The notes under the pieces are model-generated. The model was not told the DNA's origin. It saw only the letters and a list, made by a program, of their open reading frames with translations, and did not search any database. A stretch of DNA of 64,000 bases, taken from positions 4,836,001-4,900,000 of the forward strand of contig OZ193910.1 of NCBI GenBank assembly GCA_964276515.1, in the 5' to 3' direction. Position 1 is the stretch's first letter. The number at the start of each line of letters is the position of its first letter. The DNA comes from Gordius albopunctatus (lineage: Eukaryota). The position numbers were made by a program, and so were the translations under genes. This document shows positions 3,001 through 60,449 of this stretch, one piece after another.

Positions 3001-6000
3001 TGGCTTTGGATTGTTGAAGTACATTTTAATCGCAGGAATTTTTGTAGTGAAGTTGTTGCGGCATTTTACGCCTGCTGAGTTGTTGGATATTGTTAGCCTT
3101 TTAAATGTACAAATTGTTTTGAAACAAAAATTAGTATAGGGAAAATTTTATCTTGATTCCAAAATTTAGAAGTGTTTTTCCTTATAGGTTAATCTTTTTA
3201 GATTTAATGTTACCATGCCATGAATTTTTGGCTGAGAAATTCTTTAAGTTTAATCTTAAATCTGTGTTTTAAGCCTAGAACATGTGTAAGGTATGTTAAT
3301 GTTGTCGTATCCAGTTGTAATGAATGATATTTCCAAAACTACAACTATATGCTATTTTAATTAAAAACCGACTGCGTATGATTTATTTTTTGTGCTGCTT
3401 CAAATATATCTCCCTAAGCAATTTCGCAACCGTTTTATATCTGATTTAAATGGCGAATGATCTGTGATACTTTTTATAAAATGCATTTTATGATGTGTTA
3501 GTCTGGAGAATTACGGGTTAAAATGCGTCATTCCCCTGATGACAGTCTCACCAGCGCCACTTGGCACAAAGACGGAAAAAGATTTGCGACGGGCGGAACT
3601 AGGGGGCAATTTTACCTTTGCGTTAGTGAAATTATTCTTTGAAAAATAAATAATTATCTACAACCTATATACCCTCGAATTTGGCTCATTCAATTTATAT
3701 AACTTGGTTATGAAAAGGCTGATCTTTTAAAATCTCACATTTTGAGTGGGAAATAAAAAAGAAGTATTTGTTTAGTCAGTGACTACTAAAACAAAATATT
3801 TGCTTTCCAATATTTTAAATAATGCCGCGTCAATACTTTCTACCGTTATAATTAAAATGATCTTTTTCCCATGAATTAACCTCAAAATTATCATTTTAAA
3901 GCGTTTTATCTCCAACATAATTTTTGTGACATTTATGTAGGATATAAACGGAAACATTCTGGAATCTTGGGAGGGCGTACGGGTTCAGTGTATATGGGCA
4001 CTTCACGACAACAAAACCATTTTGGCGTCGGATACGCACCACCGCATCAGGGCATACAACTTCGAAGACCTCAAAGATAAAACTTTGTAATTCAACATAT
4101 AGCTTGATACTTTCACATCTGTGTGTGTGTGTGTTTTGCTGACATCCATTAGGTATTTATTATTTTATTTTTCCTAAGAGCACGAACCTAGATAGTATGG
4201 GATTTGGTTTCTCCAAGATCCTCATTAACCTTCCTAAATAGGTTTTACCCATAATTAAGCAAAGTTTAAGTTTTATCATTTATTTTAAATCCATTATAGG
4301 CTAACTATTTTTATTTTAACTATATTCCTATTTTGCCCATATTAACTTTAATCGGCTCAAATAGTTAGCCGCGCCAACCTGATACTCAATTTCATCGGGC
4401 AAAGCTTTTAGTTATAATTGTCGATTTACAAATACTATTTGGCCTTAATTCAAATATTAGTCTCTATTGTAATTTAAATAGTTTTATATTTTAAAAGCTT
4501 TTAAGCTTTTGTAATATAGTCAACTGCTTAAATTCTTATGTGGGACTGACTTTTTTGCACCCTAGCTCTATTACTTTTCAAGCAAACTTGTTCAATTATA
4601 GCTTATTCCTTTGTTTTTTAAACCTGTATTCTTGTATTATGTACATGAAATATTTCCTAACCAATTATTCATATTTGATTAGAAACTATTTATTTGCCTT
4701 GTTGATTTCCCCAAAATTATTTTGTTTTACTATTTGGGTGTTTAGAATTCAGGAAGATCACCCCATCATGTCTTTCATATGCAGCGACGATGACAGACTC
4801 GCCTTGCTCAACGTAGCCACTCAAGTAATATCCGCCGTCTCTCTCGATCTCTCTATTTAAGGCTTAAGCTGATATTATAATTATTGTATGTATCATAATA
4901 GAAATATAAGCGCCTAGTCAATACCATTATAAACGTTTTCCTAACCATCTTTAAGTGATGATTAAATATGGAAATAAACATTGGGAATACCTTTTAAAAG
5001 AGGTTGTGATTAGTCTATTAGTTTATGATACATTGAAGTTAAGTTAAAATGAGCTTTCGTGTAATATCACTTCAAATTTATTAAATTTTTAATTATTATC
5101 ATGTCACTGGGAATAGGGAGTTCACCTTTGGGATCTCGAAGACAAGATTTTAATTAAGAAGTTTCAGGGCGTAACTCAAGGTTTTTACACCATCCACTCG
5201 TGTTTCGGGGGCGCCAACATGGATTTCATCTCGAGCGGGAGCGAGGGTAATGACCACTCTTAACACTCATTTACCTATTTATGTAAAGGCTATGGAATAT
5301 TGGCTACCTATTTTGAATCACAAAATGGTTTATCAAGTTTTTCTCTATTCTTTAATTTATTGTATTGCGATTCTATGATTAAACAGAGGAATTTTTAGGA
5401 ATATACCCTAAGTGCTTTCTATAACCGATTTTAGCTTAGTCTTCATAGACGAAAGATTTAAGTCAAATCTCATTAATAACGGTTGAAATCATTGCACTTT
5501 TTGTAATTATAAAAATGTGTGAAATTTATTTTGATTACAAGGATTTATATATATTAACTTGACAAGCCAATTTATCCCCTTAGCGTTGTCACGGTTTATT
5601 CATAAGTTTGCAAGCGAGAAAATTGCTGTACTGTTATGATTCTATTCGATTAAATCCCTTTAAAATACTAAAGACTCGTTTGACGTCCCGCATATTTATT
5701 TAAACTTCCATTTAAATTCATCCCTTAGCTATATCGAATATAATTTAGCTTAAGGAAAGGCATAACATTTCACCTCAAGGAATAGTTCGACATTTTTTTC
5801 AGAAAATATCAGTTGTAAAATATAGTAATTTCGAAAGTTTTAAAATTGACATTCATCAGGAGAACCATAATTACTTGCAAATTTATCGGTGGTTATGTTA
5901 ATGAGATGAAAACACTTTGATTCTGTTTATATGAAAGCATTGTATATAGACAACAAGGTTTACATATGGCACCTGTCGAAGGAAAAGCCGATAGCTTGTT

Positions 6001-6334
6001 TGATCGGGCACACTAGGACGGTCAATTGCGTGGCTTGGAACCCGGTATTGCAAAATATGGTAGCGAGCGCTTCTGACGATAGCACCATTCGTGTTTGGGG
6101 TCCGTCCGAACCCTATCGCGTTTACAGGGGTACATACCTTCGATTAACAACACATTTTCAGCTAGAATTTGGGCTTAAGTTACCTTTCCTGTCTATTAAT
6201 GTTGGAGTATTGTAGAAACTTGCTCTATTTTCCTGTGATATAAGAAAAGGGGGCATAATTCTATATGTTTTATTCATTTTCTTACCGATATTTTAATGTA
6301 GTTTTCGTTTATTGTAGAAAGAGGCGATCCTTAA
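1..6334 (+). CDS. WDR26: WD repeat-containing protein 26 (CTLH/GID complex subunit), 5'-partial. Exons approx. <1-49, 174-350, 1811-1943, 2392-2530, 2878-3018, 3502-3621, 3941-4086, 4746-4824, 5117-5246, 5950-6129, 6318-6334
   Basis: Spliced translation gives [94 protein letters not shown] and [19 protein letters not shown], matching WDR26 motifs. GT-AG junctions are in consistent phase. Candidate AATAAA at 7107-7112. Confidence 0.95.
1964..2139. mobile_element. hAT-type MITE (CATGGGCGTAGCCAG-like TIR family) in a WDR26 intron
   Basis: Degenerate TIRs, internal G/C homopolymer tracts, perfect 8-bp TSD CTTTTGCC (1956-1963 / 2140-2147). Confidence 0.75.
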
Positions 6335-8301: not shown

Positions 8302-11300
8302 TCTTCTTCTTCTTTATCAGTTATTTGTTCCCACATTGGTGGGGTTTGTTTTGATGAGTCTCTTCCATCTTGACCGGGTTAGTGCCATGTCTTGAAGAAT
8401 CTCTTTAGTTTCCATAACTTTATCGACTTGCCCTTTCCACGTCACACGGGGTCGTCCTCTTCCTCTCTTCCCCGGTATTTTCATGTCTAGTACTTTTCGA
8501 TTTACGTCATCCGGGTCCCTTCTTAGTATATGCCCATACCACCTTAGCCGATTTTCGTTAATCATCTCCGCCATAGGTTGAATACCCATTTTTGTCATGA
8601 GAAAGTCATTCGTCATATGGTCGAGCTTAGTATACCCCAAGCTCCACCGTATCATTCTCATCTCCGTGGCTTGTAATAGCTTTCCTTCCGTGGTGTTTAA
8701 TGCCCATGTTTCACTTCCATAGAGTAACACCGGTCTTACGATGGATTTGTAAGCTTTGCTCTTCAACCATATTGGCATTTTATTGTCGCACATTACACCG
8801 GATATACTTCGCCATTTAAGCCATACTTTTTGAATCCGGGCATTGATTTCAGTTGCGCAACCTCCCTCTTGATGTAGCATAGAGCCGAGGTAATTAAACC
8901 TGTCTACTTTTGGGTACTTTAGGTGGTCATCCAGCGATGGGGTGCTTGTACCGTTCATTTCCATGTATACCGTTTTTTGATCGTTGACCTTTAAACCATA
9001 TCCAGCTAAGCGCTTTGACCACTTTTCTGCTTCTTCGAATACCTTCTCCCTTGTTTCCTCGCATATTACTATATCATCGGCATATAGCATACACCATGGC
9101 GATGGCTTTTGAAAGTCCCTCGTTATCGTGTCTATAATTATATTAAATAAAAAGGGACTTAAAGCAGAGCCTTGATGTAATCCAATATTAACCCGAAAAG
9201 GTTTAGAGTCTCCAACTGTCGTCCTAACGCAAGAGTTTGAGGCTTCATAGATATTTTTCATAAGCCGTATATATGCGTCAGGGATATTTTGTTTCCTCAG
9301 GCACCACCATATTAAATCGCGGGGGACCGTCTCATAAGCTTTCTCCAAGTCGATAAAAACCATATGTAGGTCTTTCCTCTTTTCACCATACTTATCCATC
9401 ATTTGTCTTAGGGCGAAGATTGGGTCGATTGTGGATTTGCCGGCCACGAATCCGAATTGATTAGCCGATATTTCCAACCTCTTTTTTCAGCCTTGTTACT
9501 ATGATCCTTTCCAAAAGCTTCAAGGAGTGGCAAGTTAGCTTGATACCTCTGTAATTGCCGCAGTCCTGAGGGTCTCCTTTTCCTTTGAATAAGGGTATAA
9601 TCGTGCTTGCTCTCCATTGATTAGGGATTCGCTCTTCTACCAATATCTTGTTAAGGAGGTTCGTCATGGTGGTGACTCCTTCTTCACGACATCCGAGCAA
9701 TGCTTCCATAGGTATTCCATCTGGGCCATTTGCTTTTCCTTTTTGCATCTTGTTCATTTGTGTCCTAACTTCATCCTTCTGAAAGAGTTCGACCATACTT
9801 ATATTTGGCTCAATTTCGGGAAGCGAATCCTTGTCATTTGCAATATTCATAAGTTTCCTTAAATATCCTTTCCACCTTTCCATCACTTCCTTCGGCTTGA
9901 ATAAGGTTTGACCCTTCTCGCTTTTGACTATTTTAAGAACTCCGACATCTTGACTTTTCTTCTCCCTTATCTTGGCCAATTTGTACATAAGCCTATCGCC
10001 TCCTTTATGATCCAGTTTGTTTGCCATCTCGGTGTACGCAGCATTCTTCGCTTTTGCAACGGCCTTTTTTGCGGCCCTCTTTGCGTCCCTGTACTCTTGA
10101 TAATCCTCCGACATTTTTGATTTATGCCACCATCTATATAGATTTTTCTTTATTTCGATGAAATCTTTAACCGATTGATCCCACCACCATAGTTCCCTAT
10201 TCATAGCTTTGCCTCCTTTGGTCTGTCCTAGAACACGAATCGCTGTTTCCTTAATGTCCTTAGATAGCGTTTCCCAATCTTCGTCTACGTCCCTTTGCAA
10301 CTTCCTTGCACCCAAGAGTGAGGAGGCTTTTTGATGGTATTCTTCGTTCGTCGACGTATTCTTTAGCCTTTCGTATCGAATTCGAGGTTCATATACCTTT
10401 CTTCTTTCGGGAAATACTCTTCTGTCAAGATCCATAACAAGTGGACGATGTTGCCTGGCGATTTCTTCTACCGGTATTACTTTGCAATCTTTGATACTCC
10501 ATAAGTCCTTTCGCCGTATAAGCAAATAGTCGATTTGACTAAAATGCTTCCCACTTCTATAGGTCACAATATGATCTTCGCGCTTTTGAAAATAGGTGTT
10601 AACGATCGCCATGTCATATGCTTGGGATACTTGGAGAAGTTTTTCCCCTTCTTTGTTCTTCAGACCATGCCCATAGCCTCCATGATTGCGTTCATACCCG
10701 AGGCGATCTTTCCCTGCGTGAGCGTTGAAATCGGCCCCAATAATTAGCCTTTCTTCCTGTCGGATTCCTTGTATTTCCTTTTCCAATGATTCGAAGAATA
10801 TGTCTTTCTCTGATTCCGAACACCCAATTTGGGGAGCATACGCGCACATAACGGTTAGGAGGCCCTCTTGATCCGCAATCTTCACCCACATTAGCCTGTC
10901 GGAACAACGTTTGACTTCCACCACCTTGTCCTTGAACGATTCGCTTAGAACAATACCGACCCCGTTTCTACGATTTGGTGACCCACTGTAGAAAAGCTTG
11001 TATCCTTCTCCTAATTCCCGAGCTTTCGTTCCGTTCCACCTCGTCTCTTGTAGGCAGGCGATGTTTACCTTTCTTCTTTTTAACATCTGTGCGACCTCGA
11101 TGCTCTTCCCCGTCAACGTTCCCACATTCCAGCACGAAATTCGCATTCTTTCCACAACTAGTTTCCTTAACCGCCTTCGTTGTGAGTTGGGCAGTAACCC
11201 TAGTGTATTTTTCACATTGCACGGGCGGGGTATGCAGTGCGCGTCGTTTGTGGAGGACGCCCTAGCCTTTTCTTGTAAAATCTCGTTTGAAACTATCATA

Positions 11301-11392
11301 AATTCTGGAGTTAATTTTTATAGCCGGTTTCCGACCTGACGCCAACCCTCCACTTTTTGCACACGGACTTGGGACCGTCGTAGGTAGTGTTT
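8302..11392 (-). mobile_element. Near full-length RTE-clade non-LTR retrotransposon (APE endonuclease + RT), single ORF broken by one frameshift at ~9476-9487
   Basis: ORFs 9461-11299 (WNVGTL, CLQETRW, GADFNAH, SQIDYLL, NYRGIKL) and 8317-9477 (QFGF, FIDLEKAY, GLHQGSALSPFLF, LYADD, RLRWYGH..R, RGRGRP). (GAA)n 3' tail near 8302-8313. Approx. 14-bp TSD ATTTCT[T/A]ATATAAA (minus sense) at both ends. Confidence 0.95.
11341..11392 (-). ncRNA. Twister ribozyme core (3' cleavage product) at the RTE 5' end
   Basis: Minus strand reads AACACUACCUACGACGGUCCCAAGUCCGUGUGCAAAAAGUGGAGGGUUGGC. This is colinear with the P1-type twister pattern (U|AACACUGCC..CCGGUCCCAAGCCCGG..AGUGGAGGG), with compensatory changes. 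Confidence 0.85.
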
Positions 11393-12588
11393 TTTATATA
11401 AGAAATACTATGTCAAAAAATAGATGAAATGGATTGGCCCTTTTTTATACCAATTTTATTTCAACATTAAAATTAAATAAAGAAAGTCATTATAAAATAA
11501 TTTTATATTTTCTTTTTCCCAGCGAAAATATCTCAAGAACTTCATCTGGTGTGGGGGCTAATTCCCGATGAATCGGTAAAAGGGCCAATCCATTTAATAT
11601 ACGTTTTAAGCCTCCTCAACGTTGAGAAACTTCTTTCATTGGTGCATGAAGTGACGATGATACAATTAAAGACTTCTAAGGAAATAATATTTGGAAATTT
11701 GGCAAAACTTGTTTCTTGTTCAAAAACCGTTCATTGAGTTGTATAATGAACATATCGAGCAAAGGTATAAAAATAGTGATTTTTTAATAATCCTCAATGG
11801 ATTCAGTTAAAATATTGCTTCGACAAGTTTTTTTCTTTGCATATCGAGGTTTCTTAAGGTCAAAATTAAACAAATTAGCCTTAGCTTCGACTACTAAAAA
11901 AATTTCCCGAAACTCTTCAGCTTCGGCTAACTGTGTGACTTGCTGAAGATCTAGGTCATTTTTTGCAATTGCTTGCATAATATGGACGTATAGCCAAAGA
12001 GTTTATTTAGGCATAGAAGGGAAATAAATTCACATTGTCGTAATGCAGTGAGCAAAGTTGCAGCTTATTTTGCAACATCGTGATCATACCATGTAGATAT
12101 CTTTTCCAATGCTGGATATATGGCATCTTGAAGCAAAATGTATGTGGAAACAGCTTCGTGCCGTGATGCCCAACGCACTTCAATTTCTCCTTATTTGGTT
12201 TATCTTCCATTTCTGACAACATTTCAATTAAAACTTCATGACGTTTAGAATATTTAAACAAATCATATACTTTGGAAACAATACCCATGAAATTCCGTAT
12301 AGTAGGAAGGGTACAGCTACAGGCATCTGAAAGTGCCAAATTAAATGAATACGAAGCACAATGTACATACAATGCCGTTGGGTATGTTTTCAAAATATAG
12401 GCCTGGACGCCGTTGAATTTTCCACTCATATTTCTGGCCCCATCATATCCCTGACCTCTTAACAAATTTATCCTTATATTGAGATTTTTTATGCTCTTTA
12501 TAATTAAGTCGCCTAGCCCCCTTCCAGTCGTATCACAAACTGGCACAAACTGTAAAAAATCTTCTTTTATTGTTAATGTAGAAGAGTC

Positions 12589-13691
12589 TTTCGGGATTGT
12601 TTTATTAAATATCAAAATACAAGAGCAAGTGTCTTTTGAGAATAATAAGTGCGTTTATATAATCGCGCATTAATTGAATAAACAATTAAATTTAGTGTTG
12701 TCTCCGCGAGGTATAAATAAATCAATTTAGTGGTGTCTCCGCCAGGTATGCTTGATTGGTCAATTAACGTCGTGAAGTAGTAAGGTAATGTAAATGAGAC
12801 AATTAAGTCAATTGACGCAACAAATAGTCTCCTTCGTAGACGTGGAGCGTTACTTAAAATTGAAAAAAAATTTTATTTTGGTTGATGTAAAGTATGTGTA
12901 AAGGATGTTCGTACTACCAGCCAGTTTTGTCTCCGCCTACCGTGGTTGTTAGTGAGGTGACCGAGGTGTGAGTTGCGTGTATGTTGTTGTGATGCTATCC
13001 AATATATTAATAAGATCCATGCCGCGGGCAGAGGTATCTATAGTGGAATTGCAATCGGTCATCAACTAAACCGGTAAGCGATGGTGAGAACGTTGGTAGT
13101 AGGTGTCATTGTTTTGCCGAACGTAGTCTTTGCTCGTTGCAAGAGGCCATGTAGTGTTGATGTTGAGATGGGTTTTGTGATTAGGGCCATGCGCAGCAGT
13201 GGACGGGCGTTCGGCAGACGTTGTTGTTATCTATGTAGAGGTGTAGTAGAACATCATGTTTTTCTTCGTAGAAACACACAGGTAGGTAGGCAACTTGTCA
13301 CAGCAGTCGGACACGTATTGCTAGAGGTGTTAAGAGGTTGAAGTTTTGTTGCAGCTCGATCGTGGATGCTGGATTGCCAAAAATAGTGCCTAATATGGGC
13401 GTATTCAGGGGGAGTTTTTAAAAAAAAATATATGGCTCCCCCGAACGGGGTCACCAAGTTCGGGATTGTTTTATTAAATATCAAAATACAAGAGCAAGTG
13501 TCTTTTGAGAATAATAAGTGCGTTTATATAATCGCGCATTAATTGAATAAACAATTAAATTTAGTGTTGTCTCCGCGAGGTATAAATAAATCAATTTAGT
13601 GGTGTCTCCGCCAGGTATGCTTGATTGGTCAATTAACGTCGTGAAGTAGTAAGGTAATGTAAATGAGACAATTAAGTCAATTGACGCAACA
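12589..13691 (-). mobile_element. Non-autonomous miniature LTR retroelement (TRIM-like) inserted in the hAT transposase
   Basis: Two ~232-bp direct repeats (12590-12822, 13459-13691) that look identical by eye and start TGT on the minus strand. PBS TGGTGACCCCG (13446-13456), complementary to the tRNA-Trp 3' end. Short purine tract GAAGGAGA before the 3' LTR. The ~636-bp interior has no recognisable ORF. The uninterrupted site is visible in the paralogous copy at ~7730-7760. Confidence 0.85.
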
Positions 13692-14851
13692 TGTCAATCA
13701 ATATATCGAGCACACAGGGACATTTGTTGCATCCCTGATATATCAGTAGATTCATCACAAAGAATTGTGAAGAAGGGAGATTTGTTTATTTGATTGACTA
13801 TTTTTTGAACAATTAGGTCATTACAAATTGATATAACCTCATTTTGAAAGTGAGGACTTAAGTAGAGGGCATTTTGGGGGGAATTTTTCAAATAATCAGA
13901 AAGTAGTGGGTCACCATTGGCACGGTACCTTAAAATAGCCCTAAAATTGCCATCTTATTATCATGCACATCTAAATCAAGTGCCCCAGAATCTTTGTGGC
14001 CTCTTAATACCAATCCTTAAATGCCCAAGGTCAAACTCGCTTCAATAATTGGAGCTATCTTTATCTGATTTTCTTGAGCCTGAATTTTTCTTTGTGTATC
14101 CAACTGATTACTGATGCAAAGTTTTTTCCCGCTTCTAATTAGTGTTAATGATATAATTGTTTCCAATGAATGAACGGGATATAGATTCTTTTGGTGGATA
14201 TTAGAACATTCATTAGCATCTTTCCATCTTCGAAATGGTTCAGTAACTATAGCCTTTAGCTTTTGATTTCCATATCTTCCACCAAATCTTGGACCAAAGA
14301 GCACACATGTTTTACAAAATGCCCCATTTTCTTTTGGGGAATATGCAAGCCAACTCCATTTCTCGAACCAGGAGTGTTGAAAAGCATCCCGAGGAAAATG
14401 TAACGACATGGGAGGTTGGTAAATCTTATCATGTGTTGATAGCTTATCATCTTCCTCAATATTTTCATTATTTAAATATAAAAATATGTCATAAGGGAAT
14501 GCGTCACTTGAATCTAAAATAATTAATTTTATTAAAAAAATTAAATTAGAAAATCAATTCTACATTAATTTAAAGAATATGTGTAATTAAAACTTATGCC
14601 TTTTGCTTTGGTTAATATAGGTATAGGTAAAATTTCTGTATCTTTTTTTGATAATTTTTGGCTATCCTTTATAAAATACATGAATAATTTAATATTATAA
14701 CAAATTACTAGATGTGGAAGGGCAAGGGTTGGATGATTTGATGGGAAAAAAATCGTAAATAAGTTTACGTTTAATATCGCAAAAGGAAAACAATTAATAG
14801 TCCTTTTGTCGAAATTTGATTCAAAAATAAAAAAAAGTATATATCGGTATA

Positions 14852-16759: not shown

Positions 16760-18323
16760 TTACAATTTTAATAAGTCCCGAAAGAGTGTTATGAGCATGG
16801 ATGCACCGGGTCTTTCGGCGGGAATTTGATGCCAACAAGATGTCATTAGGGATTTGAATGCATTGACTTTGGAAGTTAATTTTGCACATCGAGGCCTTAG
16901 TTCGTTTTTAACAACGTTGTACAAAACGAAATCTTTTTCCCGATTTTTGTATGGTATTTCTTTGTATAACATGTGCCACATAGTTATACCCAAAGAATAA
17001 ATATCTGCTTTGTACGTTGGGTTTTCTCCTTTAATCAACTCTGGACACATGTATTGCCAAGTACCACAATTGTTCGTAATATTTGGGTGGATTTTTTTGG
17101 ATAAAATAAGTGCGTCGCTAGTATTAATGGAGCACCCAAAATCACCTAAAAGATTGAAATTTAAAATTTGGGCTCTAAACAACTATTTTTGCCGGTAATA
17201 GCCGAGCCGAATGGTTTGAAAAATAAAATACTTCACAAAAACATCGAAAATGTAAACAAAATCAATATAAAAATGAAATTATTTTTAATATCTTAAATAT
17301 CAGAAATTCCTAGAACAACATTTTATTAATGTTTTTGACTCAGTCGGCTTTTAAATACTACATTTTCGCTACCCGACCCCGCCTTTGCAGATCGATAATA
17401 TACCTCAGGTGGGAAAAGATAAGAGAGATATTATTACCTAATTTTAGAGTCCCACCGGGACTTTTGAGAATATTTTTAGGTTTTACATCCATATGAATAA
17501 TACCATTTTTATGGCAATAATCCAGGGCGGATGCGAGTTGCAAAGTAGACCCGTACAAAAAAGTTACGGAGTCACTGACGTCTTTTTTGCACCCATGATC
17601 ACCTACGAAATCGTGGAGCGTTTCACTCCCACCATATTCCATGTAAATTGACATTTTGGATGAAAGTTCACCCATTTTACAAATTTTAATCGCGAAAGTT
17701 CTAATTATATTAGGATGCTTTAGTTGGAAAGCGTTCATTTCGTTGTTGTAAGAATTACAGTCAGAAACCGCGTTACTTTTAAATTTCAACCTTTTCAAGG
17801 CATATATTTTGGAGTTCTTTACCTTAGCTACTACTGTACTCGAAATTCCACGGCCCAAAAAATAACTGCGAGTTTTATCGATTGGATTCTTCCCTGATTT
17901 ATCATTAATTGTTATGAGGGGTAAAGTGAGATTCGCTTTAGGACTGTCTTGACCTTTATGAGGGCTAGGAATTAGTGAAAATAGTGAACTTTGTGGTGAA
18001 CATAGTGCATTGGTTTTAGAGTTATCACTCGATGATAAACTTAAATTGAAATTGGCATATTGCGGTGACGTTGATTTAATTGCCAATAAACCTAAATGAT
18101 TTTTACTTCCATATGAACCGATGAGTTTGTTATTGTAAGATGTGGGAGAATTTTTCTTTAGAGCATCCGAATAAGGTGGTGAATCAGAGAAGGATTTTAT
18201 AGGACTAAGTAAATTTAGTTTATCCGGCGACAAGTATTTGGGCAAATGGTTATATAAAGGTCTCCTGTTAGGGGTACTTGAAATTATATTTTGTAAAATT
18301 AATAATTTGGATTTATGAGACAT
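16760..18323 (-). CDS. MOS: Mos-like serine/threonine kinase; exons 18323-17438 and 17145-16760
   Basis: Motifs ALK, NE..AFQLKHPNII, IYMEYGG, QLASALDYCH..GIIHMDVKPKNIL, KLG|DFGCS, GTWQYMCPELIKGE.PT.KADIYSLGITMW. KLGDFGCS and the GE.PT.KADIYS.GIT.W block are typical of Mos. GT-AG intron 17437-17146 in phase 1. The start codon is the first in-frame ATG and is uncertain. Confidence 0.85.
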
Positions 18324-19291
18324 TAAAACTTTTGATAACAACGACTCTGACTGGATGAGCAGTTACTAACATGAGTTAATGAAAAGCCTTCGGCATTAAG
18401 TAATCCTCTAGTCGTTTTTAGAATCGCAGGCAATTGATACGATAATTTATTTCTATGTTCCTGTGTACTTTTTGAATGTCATAACGGCTTTCAATACCAA
18501 ATATATTGTTATTTAGATAATTCACCAACTTTCTACTATAATAATTTAAAATTGTATTTTTGCGCCATTTAAAAAACGATTTTTAAAATTTTTTATGGTT
18601 TATGATTATTTTTCTTAATTTCATTTTTTTCCAAAATATTTTGCAATATATCTATAATTAACTTATTGCTAATTTTAAAACTGTTTAAACGTTTTATTGA
18701 ACTTTATTTTTTCATTTTTTATCGGATGCTATTTATGTGAACAGTAAGAAAATCAAAACAGCACGATAAAATGTGCTTAACTTAATGATTTATTTAAATG
18801 CGCAGTAAATTATTTTAAAATGCACAGTTAATTAACAATAAATGTTATCATCAAAATTGCAGAAAAATAGTACACAATGCGTTGATAAGCAGTCGTCAGT
18901 CTAGTCTATGATTACTAGATGCACAGATAAGTGAACCACAGCAGGATTGCGTCATGTATAGGAAAGGATAGAATAAGCCATATACATGGGCTAGACAGGA
19001 TTTAGATTTGGGGGGGGGGCAAAAATTATGTATTAATTTTAGGAATAGGAAATAAATGATGACTGCACAAACACAATCGCAACTAGTAATCTAATCTCAA
19101 ATTTAAATTTACCAAAATAATTTAAATTTTAAATTTGTGTGTAAATTTTCTAATAATTATCTGTATTAATTTGAGTTAAGTTCAGATAGGGAGGGGGGGG
19201 CAAAACATATATATTTTTTTTAATTTTTAAGGGTTTTTGTATAGAGAATTGTTTTTTACAAATTGGGGGGGGGGGCTGGCTACGCCCATAA

Positions 19292-20065
19292 TCATGTAGC
19301 TTCATTGCTGCTTATGTATCTTCCAGCCGAATACTGTGCAATTTCATCGATGTGAAGGCTCGCTATATTCGCAGAAACCACACTACCTTTGTTAACGTAC
19401 TCACAAATCTATTTGATAAATTAAACCGAGTTACAATATTCAAGGTTAATGTGGTGTGCTTTGTACAATTTTAATAGCAAAGAACCACTTCTGTGCAAAA
19501 TGTAATATGTGCAAAATGTAATATAGGCAAGGGTTAGGGTTATATTTAGTGATTTATTTGATAATATGTATTTATTTATAAAATTGTACTATACATTTTG
19601 ATATAACTTATTTTGTTTCAATTAACAATTATAGTATCCTTTTATTACGTAGTTTTTTAGTACATATTACATATATATGAATATGCGTGAAAACCGGTCT
19701 CAATTTCTAAAATGCGAATATTACATTATTAGATTTTGCACATATTAGATTTTGCACCAGATTCCCAGAGACTACACCCAGCAACGCACAGCGCTAAATA
19801 TCTCTTGCTTAACAATGAAGTTTCTGTAGGAAAACACATGCTGTGATGTCTTGAGTATCGACTTGTACTTAGCCATAAAATAAGAGCTCTTGCATGTAAA
19901 TGTAATGAATAGGTCTGGACGACCGTAGTTAAGAACATACGCAATTGTCCGGCAGCGTATTAATGCATATGACGCGGACCCTGTATTAGCGTCATTAAGA
20001 ACTGCATCTGGCAAATAAACGTATTCTTCTGAGCAAAGTTTGGTCTGATTCAAAGGGATGAAGTG
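19292..20065 (-). mobile_element. Helitron Rep (HUH) domain remnant, interrupted by a MITE
   Basis: Degenerate AYVLNYGRPDLFITFTC and, beyond the MITE, HINLEYCNSV..IK.IC.YVNKGS..DEIAQY.AGRYISSNEA, with stops and frameshifts. Confidence 0.8.
19486..19764. mobile_element. ~279-bp MITE (copy 1)
   Basis: TIR-like ends built from TGCAAAATGTAATATG repeats and an internal GGGTTAGGGTT. It is the reverse complement of 21999-22277. Confidence 0.75.
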
Positions 20066-20072
20066 CAGGCAT

Positions 20073-21500
20073 TCAGACCAGAGGTCAGATTTGTTGGGAA
20101 TTTTCTGCCCGAACCCGGCCCGATTCAATTTTTTAACTTCATTGCCCACCCGAACCCATCTAAGTGTCCGCCGGGGCCCGCCCGAATGGTTAAAGCTGCC
20201 CGAATTGCCCGGCCGGAAATATTAAATTTGCCCATTAGTCCCGAATTTATGAGGTCCCAAAAAGAAGTCGTAGTAGTTTAAATTTTTCTGCCCGAACCCG
20301 GCCCAGTCCAAATCTTTAACTAAATTGCCCGCCTGAACCCTTCTAAGTGTCGGCTCAGCCATGCCCAAACCATTAGAGCTGTCCGGCCTTATTAATAAAA
20401 TTTTCCCGGTAGACCCGAAATTATACAATCCCAAAATCTTTCAACCACTATTACAAAATAAACATTAAATTAATGGCACATTGATCCAAACAAAGATGAC
20501 AATATTTTATTATTCATAATTATTATGTAAAAATAACAAATAGTCGACAATTTCCGGGGATAATCTTGTGCTTCTTTCCTCTATTAATCTTCCTGCGATA
20601 GAAAAACTTCTTTCACTAGCAGCACTCATCGCCGGGATGGCAAAGAGTATTTTTGTAAACCTTGCTAATTTAGGATACCTAAAATAGTTATAATTTTTAA
20701 TAACTTTAATGTGACTTGTTTGCATTATTTTTCCACTATGTTTTTTTAGTTGTTAAAAAAATTAAATGAATTAAAATTATGCGCATTGTTAGAAAATGGC
20801 ATGAGTCTTTGTTTTAAGTCTAGACGGCACACATGTGTAGTGTATTGCGAACAATGAAATGGCTTTGGCTACATAAATATAAATAATACAATCCTTTCCA
20901 TAATGGAGTAGGGCAAAGATTTAACTGAACGCGATAAAAATGTAATAAAATAATTTACTACCAGAGAGTAAAATGGTTTCTTCCATAGTATTAGATTAGA
21001 GTAGCAGTTTACATTGGTGTAGCCAGCATTAAAATTAGAGGGGGGCAATAAGGATTTAGGGAGGGGCAAAATGATAATTTTTTGAAAATTTAGCCATAAT
21101 TTTAATAAATTTTTGAATTTAGAGGGGGGCAGCTGCCCCTTCCTGCCCCCCCCTTGTCTACGCCCATGGCAGTTTAAATCGTTGTGATTATATTCTTTTA
21201 TAATATAATCTAAAAATTAAAAATTTTGGATCTTGAGACAAACCAGTTAAACTAATTTATTCGAAATGAAATTTAATTTTGAAGAAATTGAAATTAGGAC
21301 ATTATATAAACGTACAATGAAGATTTAAGCGATGGAAAAAAATCTAGTCAAATTTATTATGGCCCAAAATTGTTTATAAGCGAATTTTTATTTTTTCAGG
21401 GAAAATTAATTTGATCAAATTTTAGGCATGCCCGAATCTTATCAGCGTGCCCGCCCGAAAATTAAAATTTAAGGCAGTTGCCCGGCCCTTCTGGTCTCTG
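20073..21500 (-). mobile_element. Internally deleted hAT element with GCCCG-rich subterminal repeats
   Basis: hAT C-terminal dimerisation motif YPKLA..FAIPAMSAASERSFSIAG..RSTRLSPEIVDYLLFLH at 20510-20725. Arrays of GCCCGAA at both ends. Boundaries are approximate. Confidence 0.7.
21012..21168. mobile_element. hAT-type MITE (CATGGGCGTAGCCAG family)
   Basis: TIRs CATTGGTGTAGCCA / TGTCTACGCCCATG, perfect 8-bp TSD GCAGTTTA. Confidence 0.85.
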
Positions 21501-26228: not shown

Positions 26229-34862
<8,634 letters not shown>

Positions 34863-49134: not shown

Positions 49135-51466
49135 CTAGCTGTGCCCGGCCAAGCGTTGCTTTGGCTTTAGTCCTTAATTAGCTAAATGGGTCAATCGTTT
49201 ATGATATAAAAAAATATAGGAAAAGGCATACTTATTCATAATTAAATAGATTTGTAATAGTTTAAAATTTGTGAATTTTATATATTGAAAAGTGCGATAT
49301 TAACAATAATATGCATAGTTGGGTAACAAAAATTTATAAACCACTGCACTGGTGTATAAAAGTTAGATATAATGTTCGACAATGTATAGAAAATAGTTTA
49401 TTACAGCGTTCATAGTAGTGTAATGTCATAGCCTAAAATCTATAGTATCAAAATGAAGAGATATCAAAAGATCCCCTTCAAATTTGGTTAAATGAAGGCT
49501 TTTATAATATTTGGTTGGAATGAGAAATAATTAGAAATTATACAAATTTCCGCGTGTATAATGGAAGCATTGCACATCAAGCGTTTAACAGCAAGACGTA
49601 AACCATTTCAAAATTTTGGCTGACTAAAATTGCACATCGCGATACTTGGTACGACAATTTTCGAATGCAGAATATGAGGTGGCATCCCTGCCAGATCATT
49701 TTAATTGAAAGATTCGATTGCATAATTTGCGTCATCAATAATAACAGCAGTGTTAACCGACTTGTAAGTAATGGGATTACCTTGAATGTTAGACAGAATG
49801 AGATTGTTAAGCTCTTGGACGTCATTATTCTTGGGGGCGAGAATAGCCCGTTGGCGGAAGCAAAGTCGATCATGATAATGGGCGTTAATATTTGGAAACA
49901 CTTTATCAACCAAGCAGTTTAGATGGAACAAAATTGCACATGTTGGTAGGAAAAGAAATCCGTCCTGAGCATATATCAACGTGCACGGTTCCCTTCCCAA
50001 TTTCTAGCCATTAATGGGAGAATATCTCACATGCAGGATGATTTTGAAATACTACACGCATATTAGTAGTTAGATTTAATGTTTTGACATAAGGCAACAA
50101 AATAGAATATTTTAGGCAGGCATTAATTTCATGCGCAGGGGTGGATCGTAAGAGAACCGGTAAAGTTTGCCTGAAATCTCATGCAAGCAATAACCTTGCG
50201 TTACCAACAGGTTTTAGGGTTCTTTGTAAATCTTGCGATTACCGATTAGAACTTAGAGCGGTTTTTCATAAGCCATTGTGCATTCATCCCAAACGATAAG
50301 TTTGCACTTCTGTAATACGATACTCATTCCATATGTTCTGGAAATGTTGCACATTATAGTTTCACAGTAATAAGCGTTTAAAGGCAATTTTTAAGCTGAA
50401 TGAGCAGTTTTTACCGGGTAATTAAGTGACAGCCCTTCCGGAAGACGCTAGAACCACGGCTATATTAATTTGGGAACGAATAGTTGCCAGAGCAAAGTCA
50501 GTAGGAAAATTTTATCAGTTCCTCCTCAAACATCTAAGAAGAAGACTTTTCCTTAACTTTTATTGACAACAAGCAAAATCATATTGTAAAGGGGAGGGGG
50601 GGGAAACGTTTTAAGTTAAATTAGGATGGGGGGGGGAGGCAAAATAAAAATTGTTTAAATTTTTAAGGGATTTTGTATTGAATTTTTTTTGTCATTTAAG
50701 GGGGGGGGGCATAAATCCAAGGGCTATCTACCTAGACTATTGCGTTCCGCAGTTGAATGGTTGCCACGCTACCACCATCCTCTGTTAATCTTATTTTTTA
50801 TAAAGGATACCTATCACTGCCCGTAATCTAACTAATGTAGAGCAGACGTTCCGATTCAATTTTGGCTCACATATTACATTGATGGAATAATTGGCGGTAT
50901 TTTAAATATGATTTTCTTCGTGCTCTAGAAGCATTATTCTGTATGAATAATCATATATCTGCATTTCAAGTTTGTCGGTTAACGATTGTCTGCATTTATC
51001 AACTTACCGTTAAAGTAATCTTTTTTTACTTTTAATATTAATAACCTAACTTCATAAAAATAGCAAAAAAGCACGAAACGTGAGATTGTTTCTACAAGCG
51101 CGCGTTATATTTATTTAAGAAAATGGTGATGTTTTACGGTATCGAGAATATTTATTTGTTACAGGTTTATATATTGTAAAAAAACAGGCCTATTTAGGTA
51201 AAAAATTGAGACTCAAATGACAAAGCAATCGTGGAAAAGGTTTAATTAAGGTAATTAGTAGCACCATAACGATAAATAAGTATAAAAAACGTAGTATAAA
51301 TAATGCGCTAAAAAAACAGTGTTCTCACTGTCGCAGGTCGATAAAAAGTATCTATAAACCATCTAGGATGCTAAGGCAATAATCTGGCCAAATTTGGTGG
51401 CGATCGGTTGAGAACTCTAAAAGTTATTAGCGTTCAAAAAAAGGGACTTCGATTTTTATATATATA
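49135..51466 (-). mobile_element. Internally deleted Helitron with PIF1-helicase remnants
   Basis: Minus strand has a 3' hairpin GCCAAAGCAACGCTTGGC followed by CTAG|T at 49135, and a TATATATAAAAATCGAAG-type 5' start near 51466. Helicase fragments (LIVWDECTMA, RAILAPKNNDV, YKSVNT..YAIESFN). A MITE is inserted at ~50590-50730. Confidence 0.85.
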
Positions 51467-51467
51467 A

Positions 51468-52445
51468 ATTTGGTGCCAAAGTCGTGGGGATTATTTTGAT
51501 GAGTATTTTCCATCTTGACCTGGTAAGCGCCATATCGTGATTAATCTAATTTATTTTCACAACTTTGTCGACTTACCCTTTCCACGTGACACGAGGGGTC
51601 GTCCTCTTCCTCTCTTCTTCTGTACCTCCATGTACATCGATATACATCATTTTTCCCCGTTCTTAGTATATGCCCATACCACCTTAGCCGATTTTCGTTG
51701 ATCATGTCCGCCACAGATTGAATACCCAATTTTGTCATGAGAGTCATTCGTTATATGGTCGAGACCGTATCATTCTCATCTCGGTGGCGTGTAATAGCTT
51801 TTCTTTCGTGGTGTTTAATGCCCATGTTTCACTTTCACAGAGTAACACCGGTCTTGCGGGTAAGCTTTGCTCTTCAAACATATTGATATTTTCTTGTCGC
51901 ACATTGCACCGGATATACTTCGCCATTTAAGCCATCCTTGTTGAATCCGGGCATTGACTTCTGGTGCCCAACCTCCCTCTATTCAAACCTGTCTACTTTT
52001 GAATATTTTAGATGGTAATCTAGTGATGGAGTGCCTGTAATCTTCATCACCATGTATACCGTTTTTCGGTCGCTGACCTTTATCCAATATCCAGCTAAGC
52101 AGGTTGACCACTTTTAGGCTTCTTAGAATACTTTTCCTCTGTCTCTTCTCATAGTACTATAACATTGGCATCTAGCATATTGGCGATGGCTTTTGAATGT
52201 CTCTCGTTATCGTGTCCATAATTATTTTAAATAAAAAGGGATTTAAAGCAGATTCTTGATGTAATCCAATTTCAACCCGAAAAGGTTTAGAGATTCCAAC
52301 TTTCGTTCTAACGCACGAATTTGAGGCGTTAAGCCACATATATGCGTCAGGGATATTTTTATTCTCAGCGACCACCATATTAAATCGCAAGGGACCGAGT
52401 CATACGCTTTCTCCAAGTCATTCATTATAGACCATGTAGGTCTCT
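51468..52445 (-). mobile_element. 5'-truncated, decayed RTE LINE copy (same family as 8302-11392); its extreme 3' tail lies beyond the Helitron at ~49116-49134
   Basis: Colinear with 8320-9375, with substitutions and several deletions (DLEKAYDSVP, GLHQESAL, RLRWYGHILR). Tail ATCTCCGTTCTTTATCA at 49114-49130 matches ATCTTCTTCTTCTTTATCA of the full-length copy. Confidence 0.9.
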
Positions 52446-52692
52446 GAAGGGGAAGACCCAAACGGGATATTCCCCTAACTCTTGTTTTATTTTATTTTTT
52501 TCATACTACCACACATAACATAATGTATATATATATATATATTACGCGAGAAATTTTATACACTTGAGCGTCAAGGGTTCAGTAAGCACAAAAAGAAACT
52601 ATAAAGAGGTAAAAGTAGGGGGGGGGGGTCAATTATAGTAAAATTCTTAGGATCTTTTACGGTCTTTACGGTTATGCAAACCAGTTGTTGTT

Positions 52693-53822
52693 CTAAGGGT
52701 CATAAAAGTTCGAGCGTGACCACTGCACAATCCCTGCCAATTGAGCATCGTCGAAGAAGGATTTCCTTGAAGGAGCATCCGCCGGGTTAGCGTTCGTTGG
52801 CACCCATTTTTTTGTTTAATTTTCAGCATGTGATCCAGACCCATACGGTTGCAGATTTTCGTGAAGGCGAGCTCTAGATGAGGGGTGTGTGCGCTGCCTT
52901 TCTTGATGATATAGAAAGCCGTTTTACTGTCAGTGATGACCTTGGTGTTGGCGTGAGGTGTATCGAGCAGTGCCTTGATGTAAGCTAGTGGTATGGCGAC
53001 GAACTCTAATAAGTTGATGGTGGGGATGAGGTTTTGGCAGCGAAAGATAGCCAGAGCATCACCTTTGGCAATAGAGAGGACTTGTCCGCGATAAAACAAT
53101 CCAATGTGTGATGAGGAGGCATCCCCCGCTGTGAAACCAAATGTGTCGTATCTCATACGGAAGGGCGTAGAGAGGTGGCTTTGGAGAATGAGGAGTTTGC
53201 GTGTGACGCATTCTGTGTTGAACTCGATCGGTTCCGCAGACAAAAACATGTTGTACAGAGGGGATATGTATTTTGACCATTCCGTCAGCATGTACGTATA
53301 ATGCGTGAGGTTACCTAGGCACGTTTGCGCGACCAGAGGGTGCGGCCATTTGTTCTCTGCTACGAAGTGATTGATTATTTGTATTGCTGCATCTATTTTC
53401 TCCACGAATTTTCTGTTGATCTTAAGTGTGTGAGACTCGAGATTCACATTAATACCTAAGTAGTCAATGATAGTACGTGGTTCAACGGAGGATTTTTCCC
53501 TGTTGATGGATAAATTCCAGCATTTGGCAAGATAAAGGAATCTCCTAGTGTCCGCTTTAACCAGTTTTTTTGAGTCGCCGTAGATCAAGATGTCGTCCAG
53601 GTAGACGATGTATTTCGACTTGGTAACTGCCTTTTTGCATAAATCCAACATGATTTGCTGTAGTACAAATGGGGAGAAGCTCGCTCCCATAGGCAGAACC
53701 TTGTCATAAAATGAACAAGATTTTAAAGCAAATTTTTTGAAATTTCCCAAATATTTTCGTCGTTCTTTGCGGCCTTTTTGTCTAATATTTTCATCAATGT
53801 TGATCAGACATCTTTGCGACAT
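52693..53822 (-). mobile_element. Reverse transcriptase (motif B onward) + RNase H of a hepadnavirus-like / HEART-type or DIRS-related retroelement, 5'-truncated, one frameshift at 52807-52813
   Basis: KVLPMGASFSPFVLQ, YLDDILI, LSINREKS..P..IDYLG, VAQTCLGNLTHY..ISPLY, GDASSSHIG, INLLEFVA, ITDS. After a -1 shift in an A7 run, WVPTNANPADAPSR (52806-52765) and a stop at 52693-52695. The block is visibly more GC-rich than its flanks. Confidence 0.8.
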
Positions 53823-56016
53823 TGAGTCCTCAGGACCATGAAAGGAAAGTTAATACATATTGTCTTTAGTTATTGGTGGAGCTGAACCCGTTAAGTATCT
53901 TTAATGGGTCTAGCCGGGATTCGAATTGAAGGGGGATGATATGTTGGAAAATGATTTAAAGAGGGGCAACATTGGGATTTTCGTAATTTAGATTTTATGA
54001 AATACATAAAAAGATTTGGATTGGAAGGGGGGAGACAGTATTAAAAACTACCTTCGTTAAGTCTTAAAATTTAGAATGATAAATATAAGTTGGTTATAAT
54101 CTACAATGAAAAAAAACGACCAAATATAAACTTTTAGGAACAGTTAAGCAATTCTAAACCAATCTAGAAGGAAACCCATAGCTTTTACAGATTTCTTGAA
54201 CAAATGGCCACCTATGCTAGTTACCGTGATCGAAGCTAACTCAAGTTGTCCGTAAAAAATCCTCCGATCAATAATTAAAATTTTAAATAAACATGTTCAT
54301 GGTGATAATATACATGTCAGTTAACTCATGCGTTAAATCTGATATTATGAAGCATACATCTAAGCAAACCCTTAAATTGTTAAAGATATAATCTGCCTTT
54401 TGATAAAACTTTTCAATTTTCCCAAGGGACTTAGCTATCATGCAACATTAGCTTTAAAATAATCATGTGCAGTGCAATAGATCTAAGGATGAGACTTATA
54501 GCCATTTTGTCCATTACTTATAAAGCAAAAGCGTTGTTTTCATGGGCGTAGCCAGGGGGGGCAGCCCCTCCCCCCTAAATGACAAAAAAAAATTTCAATA
54601 CAAAAACCCTTAAAAATTAAAAAAATCAAGTTTTGCCCCCTTCCCTTAATTAAATTCAAACAACTTTCGCCCCCTTCCCTAATCCAAAACCTGGATACGC
54701 CCATGATTGTTTGCTTTTTGGTTCTATATCCAAGAGATTAAATTAAACTATTATACATTTTTAATAAATATTAAAATGATGAGAGAAATTACGATACATG
54801 CTATCTTTTCTGAAGAACAAGACAAATTTTGTAATTAAAATGCCTATTTTTCTTTATATAATTATTTGTAATAATCTTGCTTTTATCATAATTCTTCAAA
54901 TAAGAATGATCGTCTAAACCATATTTTGTGGTGTTTTTAATTTCTTATAATTTTGTGTCATTTATTTTTTATTTGTTTTTGAAAATTTATATTGAATATT
55001 ACCACCTAACAAAATAATGCATTCGACAAAAAATAAATAAAATTCATCTTCTATTGCATTAAACTAAGCCTAGTTTTTAAAAGGAAAGTATGGTCCATTT
55101 CAGCATATATATTTGAGACGAGTCTATATTACAATTATTATAGATGACATTTAAAATGAACTTGATAGATTTATATTAAAATTGAGATTATGTGAAAAAT
55201 TGAAATTTATGGTATATTATTTGGTAAGGTACACAATTTTAATAAGGCCCGGGGCCGGCCCGGGCGTCGCCCATACAGGTCTCTAGGTAGGACATACGGT
55301 TTATAAGATAAATATATTGCAATAAATATTCGTTATTTTTTAAAATTAATGTCCTTGGGAAAAACATGATTGATAATTAAATGCATAGCATAATCTTAGC
55401 ATATTCAAGATAAATTTTTGTGTTTCTTTCGAACTAAACCATGAATAGAAAATCAGTTTGAAAATTTTTAATTTATTAAGCGTTAAGCGGATATAAGCAG
55501 TTAATAGAATGCGATATGCTTCAAATGTTGTATAGGTAGAGCCCTGCATCCTCGGTCCGACCCCGAAACTTTTTATTAATTTTGTCCAAGCCCATTTTTT
55601 TACTCAGGCCCGACCCAAGCCCGGCTGGTCTTTTTAAGAAGTAAATTTATAAAAAAAAATTATTGACGCACCTTTAATTTAAAATAAAAATGTTTTGGCT
55701 CCTCTAAATAGCCTATTCAACAAAGAAATTAGTTAAAAGTTTAAAATAATACTTTTACCCGATTTTGCCTTGGGTCGAGTAGACCCATTAGGCCCGACCC
55801 GACCTGGTAAAACCTATAATTTTAAGAGTAGCGAAGGTAATAAAATTGAGAAGCTTTATTAATTATAAATATCATGTATAGCAAAGTTAAAAGGAAAACC
55901 GAATATCAAAAATAAGTTTAAATAAATTCGCATAACAATAAACATTTTAATAAATAAATGTAGGTGGCTTAAAAGCAGTGTCCCATATAGTTTTCGTTCA
56001 GTGCACTTGGCAGCTC

Positions 56017-59000: not shown

Positions 59001-60449
59001 ATTTTTGTAGTCAAGAAAAAAATTTTTTTTAATCTGCCCCCCCCCTAATTCAAAACATGCGTGCGCCCATGCTTTGATTTAATATTTCAAATCGTAAAAA
59101 GTTTCCATTTTTCGCATGCACACACATAGTTTCAATTAGATACGCAGTAGGTCATGAGGTTGCGTTTGATTGACATTCTATTAAACGTCAAAACGTATAA
59201 AACAAACTCGAAAACTACTGGACCGATTTGGCTCGAACAAATCTTAAAACATGCTCCGGAGTGTGGGGAATAAACTGTGAATCGGTCTGGTAGTTTTTCA
59301 AAATTAGTGGCGGCATACATACATAGTTTCATTTTTATATATAAGAATTAAGGAAAGACAATTTAAAAATTACAATAAACTAAATAAAATCCAGTTTATT
59401 CTAAAAGAAATAAAATAATTTTTTTCATCTATTTTAGTCTTAAATATTTTTTAAATTTATATAAACTTATAATTTTGCTTAAATTTCAAAGAAACATTAA
59501 AAAAATTTAAAAATAGAATGTACCTGCATTGACAGCTTCCTTACACATAGACACTATAAGAGGTGAATATTTTGCAATTTTTTCTCCCAACTTTACTGCC
59601 TCTTCCACTAGTTTGTCAGGTGGAAATATTTTGCTAACAATACCTAATTTTATTAACTTGATTGCAATATATTGTGGTATCTATGCGTATATAAAGACAA
59701 ATCAAAATCATACCAATTTGTTTTGCCTCTTGAGCATTAATTGGTTCACCACTTAATACCATTTCCATTGCTACTGATTTTCCTGCAGATCTTATAAGTC
59801 TTTGACTACCACCAGCCCCTAATTTAATTTGTTAAAATTACTGTTCAGTATAAGACTTACCAGGGGTAGTTCCTAATTTAATCTCAGGTTGCCCAAACTT
59901 GGCAAGTTCACCAGCATAAATTATATCACACATCATTGCTAATTCACAACCACCTCCTAGCTACAAATGTTAAGAGATTATATAATTGTTATTGGCCTTT
60001 AATAATTAAAAAGTACTGCAAATCCATTCACAGCTGCTATTATAGGTTTTCTAACAGCATTCAAACCATCCCATTTTTCTATAAATTTTTCCTTAGTGAC
60101 TTGGGTAAATGACTTTTCACTCATTTCCTTAATATCAGCACCAGCGGCAAATGCTTTTTGACTTCCAGTTATAACTATAGCCCCAATATTAGAATCCTTA
60201 TCTAATGATTTGCACGCGTCTACAAGCTCCACAATTAATTCGTCGCACAAAGAATTTAAAGCCTTTGGTCTATTCAAAGTAATGAGGCCTACATTAGCCA
60301 TGGGCCCTCTTTTTTCCATAATAATATTATGGTAATGCATCATACCAGCTTAAAATCGATTATTAAATAAAGTCTTATTTACCAAATTTATTCAACATCT
60401 TTACATTGCTGATTAAGCCTAATTTTGAAAATAGTAGAGTACGATGCAT
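56017..60449 (-). CDS. ECHS1: Mitochondrial short-chain enoyl-CoA hydratase; exons 60449-60383, 60348-60017, 59960-59861, 59818-59714, 59643-59524, 56239-56172, 56082-56017
   Basis: [114 protein letters not shown]. Short basic N-terminal targeting-like exon. Confidence 0.95.
58345..59346 (-). mobile_element. Non-autonomous Helitron copy in an ECHS1 intron, interrupted by a hAT MITE at 58772-59071
   Basis: Reverse complement of the 40602-41406 family. The MITE is flanked by a perfect 8-bp TSD CTTTGATT, which is single-copy in the other two Helitron copies. Confidence 0.88.

Follow-up and report, generated by a model that had tools for sequence, protein, structure and literature searches.

Features of the locus

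The window analysed here, i.e., a stretch of 64,000 nucleotides of Gordius albopunctatus DNA (contig OZ193910.1), carries on its minus strand all ten motifs of a reverse transcriptase (RT) plus RNase H, exactly where the first-pass annotation had placed them. The features of the locus, in the order in which the minus strand is read, are:

53712..54540, no strand assigned: AT-rich flank (32-34% GC) adjoining the RT start
52815..53711, minus strand: latter half of the RT palm, from motif B to motif E, thumb and RNase H, 299 codons without a stop
53702-53661, minus strand: KVLPMGASFSPFVL, RT motif
53603-53592, minus strand: YLDD, RT motif
53507-53490, minus strand: INREKS, motif
53462-53454, minus strand: YLG, motif
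53333-53298, minus strand: VAQTCLGNLTHY, motif
53267-53253, minus strand: ISPLY, motif holding the thumb PxY
53129-53115, minus strand: AGDAS, RNase H acidic position
53018-52995, minus strand: INLLEFVA, RNase H acidic position
52937-52926, minus strand: ITDS, RNase H acidic position
52807..52813, minus strand: frame break within a run of A's
52693..52809, minus strand: RNase H end in the other frame, consisting of WVPTNANPADAPSR, 23 further codons and a stop
52806-52765, minus strand: WVPTNANPADAPSR, in the other frame, with the last RNase H acidic position
52551..52692, minus strand: probable non-coding 3' end containing a C-run and a single TATAAA (52560-52555)
52526..52541, no strand assigned: (TA)8 run just past the apparent 3' end
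51468..52419, minus strand: RTE-type LINE remnant, 79% identical to a copy at 8323-9351

The main frame is free of stop codons over 53849-52647 of the minus strand in the list of open reading frames (ORFs), and its product matches the Pfam RVT_1 profile at E 4e-13, above the curated cut-off. Three acidic catalytic positions of the RNase H (AGDAS, INLLE, and ITDS) lie in 52815..53711 and the last one beyond the break, in a shifted frame as had been proposed; the window copy thus keeps YLDD and all four acidic positions. The block is also GC-richer, as first remarked from the sequence (45% over 52647-53711 vs 33% for the whole window). Having neither the RT fingers nor motif A, the copy is truncated at its 5' end; without motif A it is incapable of working alone and is a dead fragment. 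No methyltransferase was found after its RNase H, and PF00336 matches at E 0.17 only.

A tblastn search of the window with P0002, a protein of the horsehair worm Gordionus, gave E 9e-45. Homology to the Gordionus proteins runs from about 53711-53768, of which the part up to 53768 is a weak similarity that may belong to it, down to 52809, and resumes at 52809 in the other frame. Since the homology follows the motifs through two frames, the set of motifs is not a product of chance. A sequence search of the PDB returned only weak RT matches (best E 0.037), and the fold predicted for P0002 from a five-row alignment has a pLDDT of 42.

A real frame break in a chromosomal copy

We compared the locus with contigs from two sequencing runs, X1 and X2, which come from a single study and possibly cover the source sample. 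The contigs show 0 differences and 0 gaps across 52653-53529 (X1) and 52653-53229 (X2). The depth of the window copy equals that of the unique flanks, about 200 in one run and 500-680 in the other, and a contig at single-copy depth (53638-54593) links the RT start to the AT-rich flank. Together, the contigs without differences at flank depth and the flank junction show that the copy is chromosomal and its frame break genuine. The zero-difference contigs from both runs rule out an assembly slip at the break, and the junction with host sequence at single-copy depth bears out the earlier proposal that the copy is endogenised. Programmed frameshifting at the A run may be considered; against it, the Gordionus relatives that cover this region have an uninterrupted frame there, and a stable downstream fold was not found.

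The same runs contain related contigs with 40-49 differences per 321-345 bases (12-14% divergent); differences in their depth between runs were no larger than the variation among repeat bins and were set aside. Another contig of 1054 bases (X1) aligns with 52551-52808 (31 differences, 7 gaps), i.e., only with the last 258 bases of the element, and beyond them runs into dissimilar sequence; it may represent a copy cut down further, a terminal repeat, or a copy of another structure.

Flanks and genomic surroundings

Similarity to a related copy ends at 52551, which delimits the likely non-coding end. In this segment (52551..52692) the fold is not stable (z 0.68) and Rfam has no match; nor are there Rfam matches over 52400-54600, where the 5' end of the element is missing. 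The TATAAA is a motif expected here by chance 1.8 times per kb per strand. Runs of (TA)6 or longer occur at only two sites in the whole window, one of them being the (TA)8 at 52526-52541, which is therefore likely a target site or tail. The RTE remnant is host flank and lies outside the element. A tail made by RTE can be ruled out, because RTE in the window ends in GAA repeats, not in TA.

We found no terminal repeats or target-site duplication at the window copy, and no split direct repeats either in the interval 50-58 kb or in a blastn comparison with the window, the copy being partial. The AT-rich flank (53712..54540) has no RT, terminal-protein, or core similarity. The absences recorded at first pass were reproduced in the wider region: no similarity to RT motif A, terminal protein, or core was found outside the RT/RNase H in 48-58 kb. 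The core ORF was also sought with the plus-strand ORFs of 17 hepadnavirus genomes, which had no match in 48-58 kb; cores diverge fast. There is no long ORF or Pfam recombinase match near the element: the longest overlapping ORF on the same strand has 83 aa, and downstream lie the TA run and the LINE remnant.

The rest of the window is a mixture of host genes and repeats. A near full-length RTE-type LINE occupies 8317-11317 (minus strand) in two frames, with a GAA-repeat end, and in one bin the depth of RTE is up to ~2900 times that of single-copy sequence. A G-run repeat flanks the region as short, inverted copies (54548-54731 and 50650-50709); at ~1000 times single-copy depth it is a MITE- or SINE-like host repeat. 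Decayed transposons, all on the minus strand (12007-14553, 19772-20221, 49701-50003, and 31797-32171), are hAT-like (DUF4371), Helitron-like, or carry an integrase core (rve); some of these pieces hold what are presumably Helitron-like Rep and helicase motifs. The host genes are split by introns. They include an enoyl-CoA hydratase gene (59634-60349, minus strand; ECH_1, E 3e-29) and others that we take to be genes for a Mos-like kinase (16760-18362, minus strand) and a poly(A)-binding-type RRM protein (33889-34795, minus strand), with a presumed WD40 exon at 5910-6215 (plus strand). The introns and the Mos-like kinase mark the host as an animal, plausibly an invertebrate.

A dispersed family of relatives in Gordionus

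The closest relatives of the window protein are in Gordionus. A protein search for matches near the query length retained 1 of 802 candidates, a Gordionus protein with 35% identity over 98% of the query. The search of the full library gave 181 matches at E <=0.001, only 3 of them below 1e-10: two are Gordionus proteins, and the third, a repetitive protein, was set aside as spurious. Most of the distant matches appear DIRS-type by their motifs. In total, Gordionus has 11 such proteins (among them XP_065317776.1, XP_065315196.1, XP_065315139.1, and CAK9296137/8.1) on five chromosome-size contigs (32-94 Mb), and they form a dispersed family; two of them, with consecutive accessions, may represent a single locus. 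The assembly is described as having five pseudochromosomes in the consulted part of its report (bioRxiv 2023.06.26.546503). The copies are 48-95% identical to P0002, and the two longest matches to the window have 34-35% identity.

These proteins, annotated as uncharacterised, share with the window copy the order LPMGAxFSP, VYLDD, thumb PxY, INxxE, TDS, and NPAD. The window copy is truncated and frameshifted, whereas the longest Gordionus members have the whole RT, including motif A, and the RNase H in a single frame, some with a tail of up to ~90 residues. In hhalign, their N-terminus corresponds to the pre-RT segment both of DIRS (96%) and of HEART-like proteins (96%) and not to the terminal protein of hepadnaviruses (0.3% against nine terminal-protein rows); nor do they match PF00242. 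Their C-termini have no methyltransferase.

Searches further afield yielded little. IMG/VR has no relatives of the window/Gordionus family, nor of two neighbouring sets. A metagenome scan (3 of 64 parts) kept 80 loci, mostly Gypsy-type by motifs, with a best identity of 30%; a GTDB scan gave one DIRS-type contig, and a further search 5 loci, of which the 2 inspected are both Gypsy. In a protein search seeded with hepadnaviruses, the 120 matches listed out of 372 are all hepadnaviruses bar one query row. We found no literature on such elements in horsehair worms, in a coverage mostly outside subscription journals, and no mention of Gordionus or Nematomorpha in the consulted part of the PMC12691608 supplements. 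As far as these literature and sequence searches reach, the element is undescribed, as had been suspected.

Profile scores and diagnostic motifs

We scored the window protein against profiles of the candidate groups, which differ in size from 2 to 22 rows. The HEART-like (122 bits) and DIRS (119 bits) profiles are first, followed by that of P0009/P0041 (72), Ngaro (45), Gypsy (45), VIPER-like (44, from 3 rows), and hepadnavirus, which is the lowest (38). The comparison by hhalign likewise gives HEART-like E 6e-53 and DIRS E 2e-49, and for the RNase H alone DIRS is better (E 6e-16 vs 3e-13 for HEART-like). A search of the Atlas with P0002, rather than with the window protein, ranks Euglenozoa clusters first (0.96) and hepadnavirus P 20th (0.93), the taxa being based on 3 members per cluster.

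Three motifs had been regarded as fitting hepadnaviruses and their allies better than Gypsy, Copia, or LINE RTs: PMG..SP, the thumb PxY, and NPADxPSR. The thumb PxY retains this value, since it is present in 3/3 rows of the window family and 7/7 hepadnavirus rows and in 0/46 other grouped rows. The other two do not, because they also occur in DIRS, and NPAD in Gypsy as well: PMGxxxSP is found in 6/7 hepadnavirus, 6/14 other methyltransferase-less, and 3/19 DIRS rows, and NPADxxSR-like ends in 7/7 hepadnavirus, 12/14 other methyltransferase-less, 2/19 DIRS, 2/3 VIPER-like, and 2/6 Gypsy rows. Three Gypsy-type pol ORFs from the scans (L020, L047, and L090) have an RNase H end, NPADGPSR, that is identical to that of duck HBV, hence this motif is not specific to hepadnaviruses. 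Conversely, YMDD with TGxxFLVxK characterises 7/7 hepadnavirus and 0/3 family rows, the window copy being without the region that would hold TGxxFLVxK. INxLE/KE occurs in 3/3 family, 11/19 DIRS, and 0/7 hepadnavirus rows.

Phylogeny of the RT and RNase H

The references comprised 17 hepadnavirus genomes, one further hepadnavirus-type protein, and unnamed matches that were assigned by their motifs to DIRS, Ngaro, VIPER-like, HEART-like, or Gypsy; published HEART, nackednavirus, and proto-nackednavirus rows are not part of the trees. Ngaro rows were labelled by the pattern SP.G.VPK..RLIHHLS. The HEART-like and VIPER-like labels were assigned by eye against supplements, the latter resting on one motif seen in a TATE supplement. 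A first tree of RT plus RNase H (FastTree) was built from 84 rows in which the RT is complete and the end of the RNase H recognisable. The main tree has 59 rows (52 of the 84, near-duplicates dropped, and 7 added), and a mixture-model tree has 38 of the 59.

The window copy and the Gordionus proteins form a clade in every tree (100/97 and 99/99). Gypsy is the outgroup at 100/100 in the 59-row tree, which rules out a Gypsy identity, and the trees agree with the first-pass annotation that this is an RT-RNase H of DIRS/VIPER/HEART/hepadnavirus type. Hepadnaviruses group with 8 environmental HEART-like rows (98/95 in the 59-row tree), and a similar clade appears under the mixture model (92/88); the window family is outside both, in a basal polytomy of the two careful trees. 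With hepadnavirus rows as its only representatives, the Blubervirales clade excludes the window family in all free trees. The FastTree (95) and a quick mixture tree (91) separate the family from DIRS/Ngaro and leave it on the side of the hepadnaviruses. The tree of the RT alone places it, weakly, at the base of HEART-like rows and hepadnaviruses (87/88), and that of thumb and RNase H groups it with hepadnaviruses, HEART-like, VIPER-like, and 3 DIRS rows (99/79). DIRS, Ngaro, and VIPER had been named as the main alternative at first pass; no RT plus RNase H tree gives a supported placement inside them, and free trees never join the family to VIPER-like, DIRS, or Ngaro rows.

We then constrained the position of the family and applied AU tests under LG+G4, with groups that were named after the trees had been seen. 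The least costly placement of all is with the three VIPER-like rows (1.9 log units, p 0.44), then with hepadnaviruses plus HEART-like rows (2.6 log units, p 0.42). Placements with hepadnaviruses alone (p 0.22), with all DIRS and Ngaro (p 0.21), and with Ngaro (p 0.11, at a cost of 36 log units) were followed by that with the 19 DIRS rows alone (p 0.042).

Nature of the element

The feature in the window is apparently a fragment of an undescribed animal retroelement lineage in the zone between DIRS, VIPER, and HEART, and on the features tested it is not a member of Blubervirales. The first description, as a hepadnavirus-like polymerase, finds partial support in the lean of the RT tree and in the thumb PxY; in the narrow sense it is not supported, given the lowest profile score and the absence of YMDD and terminal protein. 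HEART elements, reportedly described by Gong and Han in 2018, have an RT and an RNase H but neither terminal protein nor integrase nor recombinase. They are further characterised, in the part of PMC12440569 consulted, as genomic retroelements of invertebrates close to Blubervirales, with an unsettled mode of mobilisation.

We tentatively favour, while holding it somewhat short of probable, that the window has a 5'-truncated, frameshifted chromosomal copy of an integrase-less RT-RNase H element of HEART grade, shared with Gordionus. What is visible agrees with HEART: RT and RNase H, and no terminal protein, integrase, or recombinase in the parts seen. The best profile is HEART-like, the RT tree places the family, weakly, at the base of HEART-like rows plus hepadnaviruses, and the thumb PxY is shared with hepadnaviruses only. 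Copies are scarce and divergent and show no terminal structures, that of the window being at single-copy depth. Similar SP..PK..R.I.D.S and F.L..P patterns can be recognised by eye in the fingers of HEART retroelements and of the window family. On the other side, the careful trees exclude the family from the hepadnavirus and HEART-like clade, the DIRS profile is nearly equal and better on the RNase H, INxLE/KE is DIRS-like, and the Euglenozoa clusters found with P0002 hint at VIPER/TATE. The HEART of Ixodes has PFG[IL]RP and [YH][IL]DN as motifs B and C (PMC12691608, consulted part), in contrast to PMGASFSP and YLDD here.

An intact source element of this HEART-grade kind would rely on its own RT and RNase H to copy RNA into DNA, as the conservation of YLDD and of the four acidic positions suggests. 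Priming would proceed without terminal protein, since the relatives lack one and protein priming of the hepadnavirus style would be impossible. Entry into the chromosome would likely occur without an integrase of its own. The element may be small, with one main ORF, its cDNA perhaps captured by host repair or by LINE machinery, which might result in low-copy, mutually divergent, and often truncated inserts. The unnamed rows that are nearest by path in the RT tree or by profile score (P0009, P0041, and P0048) are from contigs of 2.3-3.2 kb; if whole, these could hardly accommodate separate ORFs for gag and recombinase, and they may be fragments.

A VIPER/TATE-like tyrosine-recombinase retrotransposon of animals, with gag, recombinase, and RT/RNase H, whose circular DNA integrated without target duplication, possibly at TA repeats, is a plausible, if doubtful, alternative. 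VIPER/TATE have the RT/RNase H as third ORF and split direct repeats at their ends (PMC6681497, consulted part), and VIPER is without methyltransferase (PMC4157794, consulted part). Here, too, RT/RNase H comes last and lacks a methyltransferase, the stop falling 23 codons past NPAD and the end ~150 bases on, and gag and recombinase would have been in the lost 5' part. The cheapest constrained placement is this one, the top Atlas clusters for P0002 are Euglenozoa, and the spread over five Gordionus contigs suggests efficient integration. Grouping of the VIPER RNase H with hepadnaviruses is known; the consulted part of PMC6681497 links VIPER to hepadnaviruses through the RNase H only and reports it from kinetoplastids. 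No recombinase, gag, or split repeats are seen in the window, however; the profile score is among the lower ones, free trees do not join the two, and both the VIPER-like label, given by eye from one motif, and the Atlas taxa, from 3 members per cluster, qualify the resemblance.

It is less likely that horsehair worms and this host repeatedly captured an undescribed small reverse-transcribing replicon, infectious or episomal and without terminal protein, that branches just below HEART and Blubervirales. If true, it would be a living intermediate between DIRS/VIPER and the hepatitis B-like viruses in which the thumb signature of hepadnaviruses is already present.

An endogenised fragment of a true reverse-transcribing DNA virus related to Blubervirales, with capsid and small circular genome, infecting worms or their arthropod hosts, is improbable. 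Hepadnaviridae, nackednaviruses, and proto-nackednaviruses share with the window the order RT, thumb, and RNase H, as well as PMGxxxSP, thumb PxY, and NPADxPSR (consulted parts of PMC12691608 and PMC11551314). The GC-richer, nearly intact ORF and the 12-14% divergent relatives in the same runs fit repeated capture from a diverse pool, the AU test does not reject a clade that unites the family with only the hepadnaviruses, and the TATAAA close to the 3' end is a weak further point. Yet the identity with Blubervirales is about 22-34% over short RT stretches only, and terminal protein, YMDD, TGxxFLVxK, core, and envelope were not detected here. The N-termini of the relatives are those of DIRS and HEART-like proteins, the hepadnavirus profile is the lowest, and neither a core in 48-58 kb nor a relative in IMG/VR was found.

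Still more improbable is an ordinary divergent DIRS1/PAT/Ngaro fragment from which the methyltransferase and the downstream recombinase have disappeared. The pre-RT segment, INxLE, YLDD, and the high profile scores, best on the RNase H, resemble these elements, as do most of the distant matches, apparently, by their motifs; a grouping with all DIRS and Ngaro is not rejected by the AU test, and the loss of the methyltransferase has a precedent in VIPER (PMC4157794, consulted part). In contrast to DIRS1/PAT/Ngaro, only ~150 bases follow the RNase H here, no methyltransferase (including in the Gordionus C-termini), downstream recombinase, or terminal repeats are seen, and the family is outside their clades: the 19 DIRS rows alone have AU p 0.042, Ngaro costs 36 log units, and no tree placed it there. 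Kuafuorterviruses are set apart by their description as LTR-flanked (PMC11673190, consulted part).

The window and Gordionus family adds a further animal lineage in the gap between DIRS/VIPER and hepadnaviruses. Several of its RT-RNase H copies are long and open and lie in a worm genome that is public and assembled to chromosome level; their flanks bear on whether such elements move by a tyrosine recombinase, a capsid, or neither.

Other RT-RNase H proteins

The searches also brought up unnamed proteins that are distinct from the window family. The 8 HEART-like proteins that group with hepadnaviruses at 98/95 are P0016, P0029, P0070, P0086, P0113, P0123, P0124, and P0173; P0069, P0202, and P0203 are of the same type, with ENA, Logan, and JGI as sources. 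Several have long acidic N-termini, the contigs looked up have 2.6-5.3 kb, three proteins are above the PF00336 cut-off, and 0/6 scanned match the terminal protein. They stand nearer to hepadnaviruses than the window element does and are possibly unreported replicons of HEART grade. P0176 and P0184 are environmental RT-RNase H proteins whose pre-RT motif is common with a TATE copy in a supplement, which makes them likely VIPER/TATE-like. Finally, P0229 (Logan, contig of 3018 bases) has 685 aa with terminal protein, RT, and RNase H, is 59% identical to duck HBV over RT/RNase H, and resembles by eye the endogenous bird row eJHBV (PMC12691608, consulted part).
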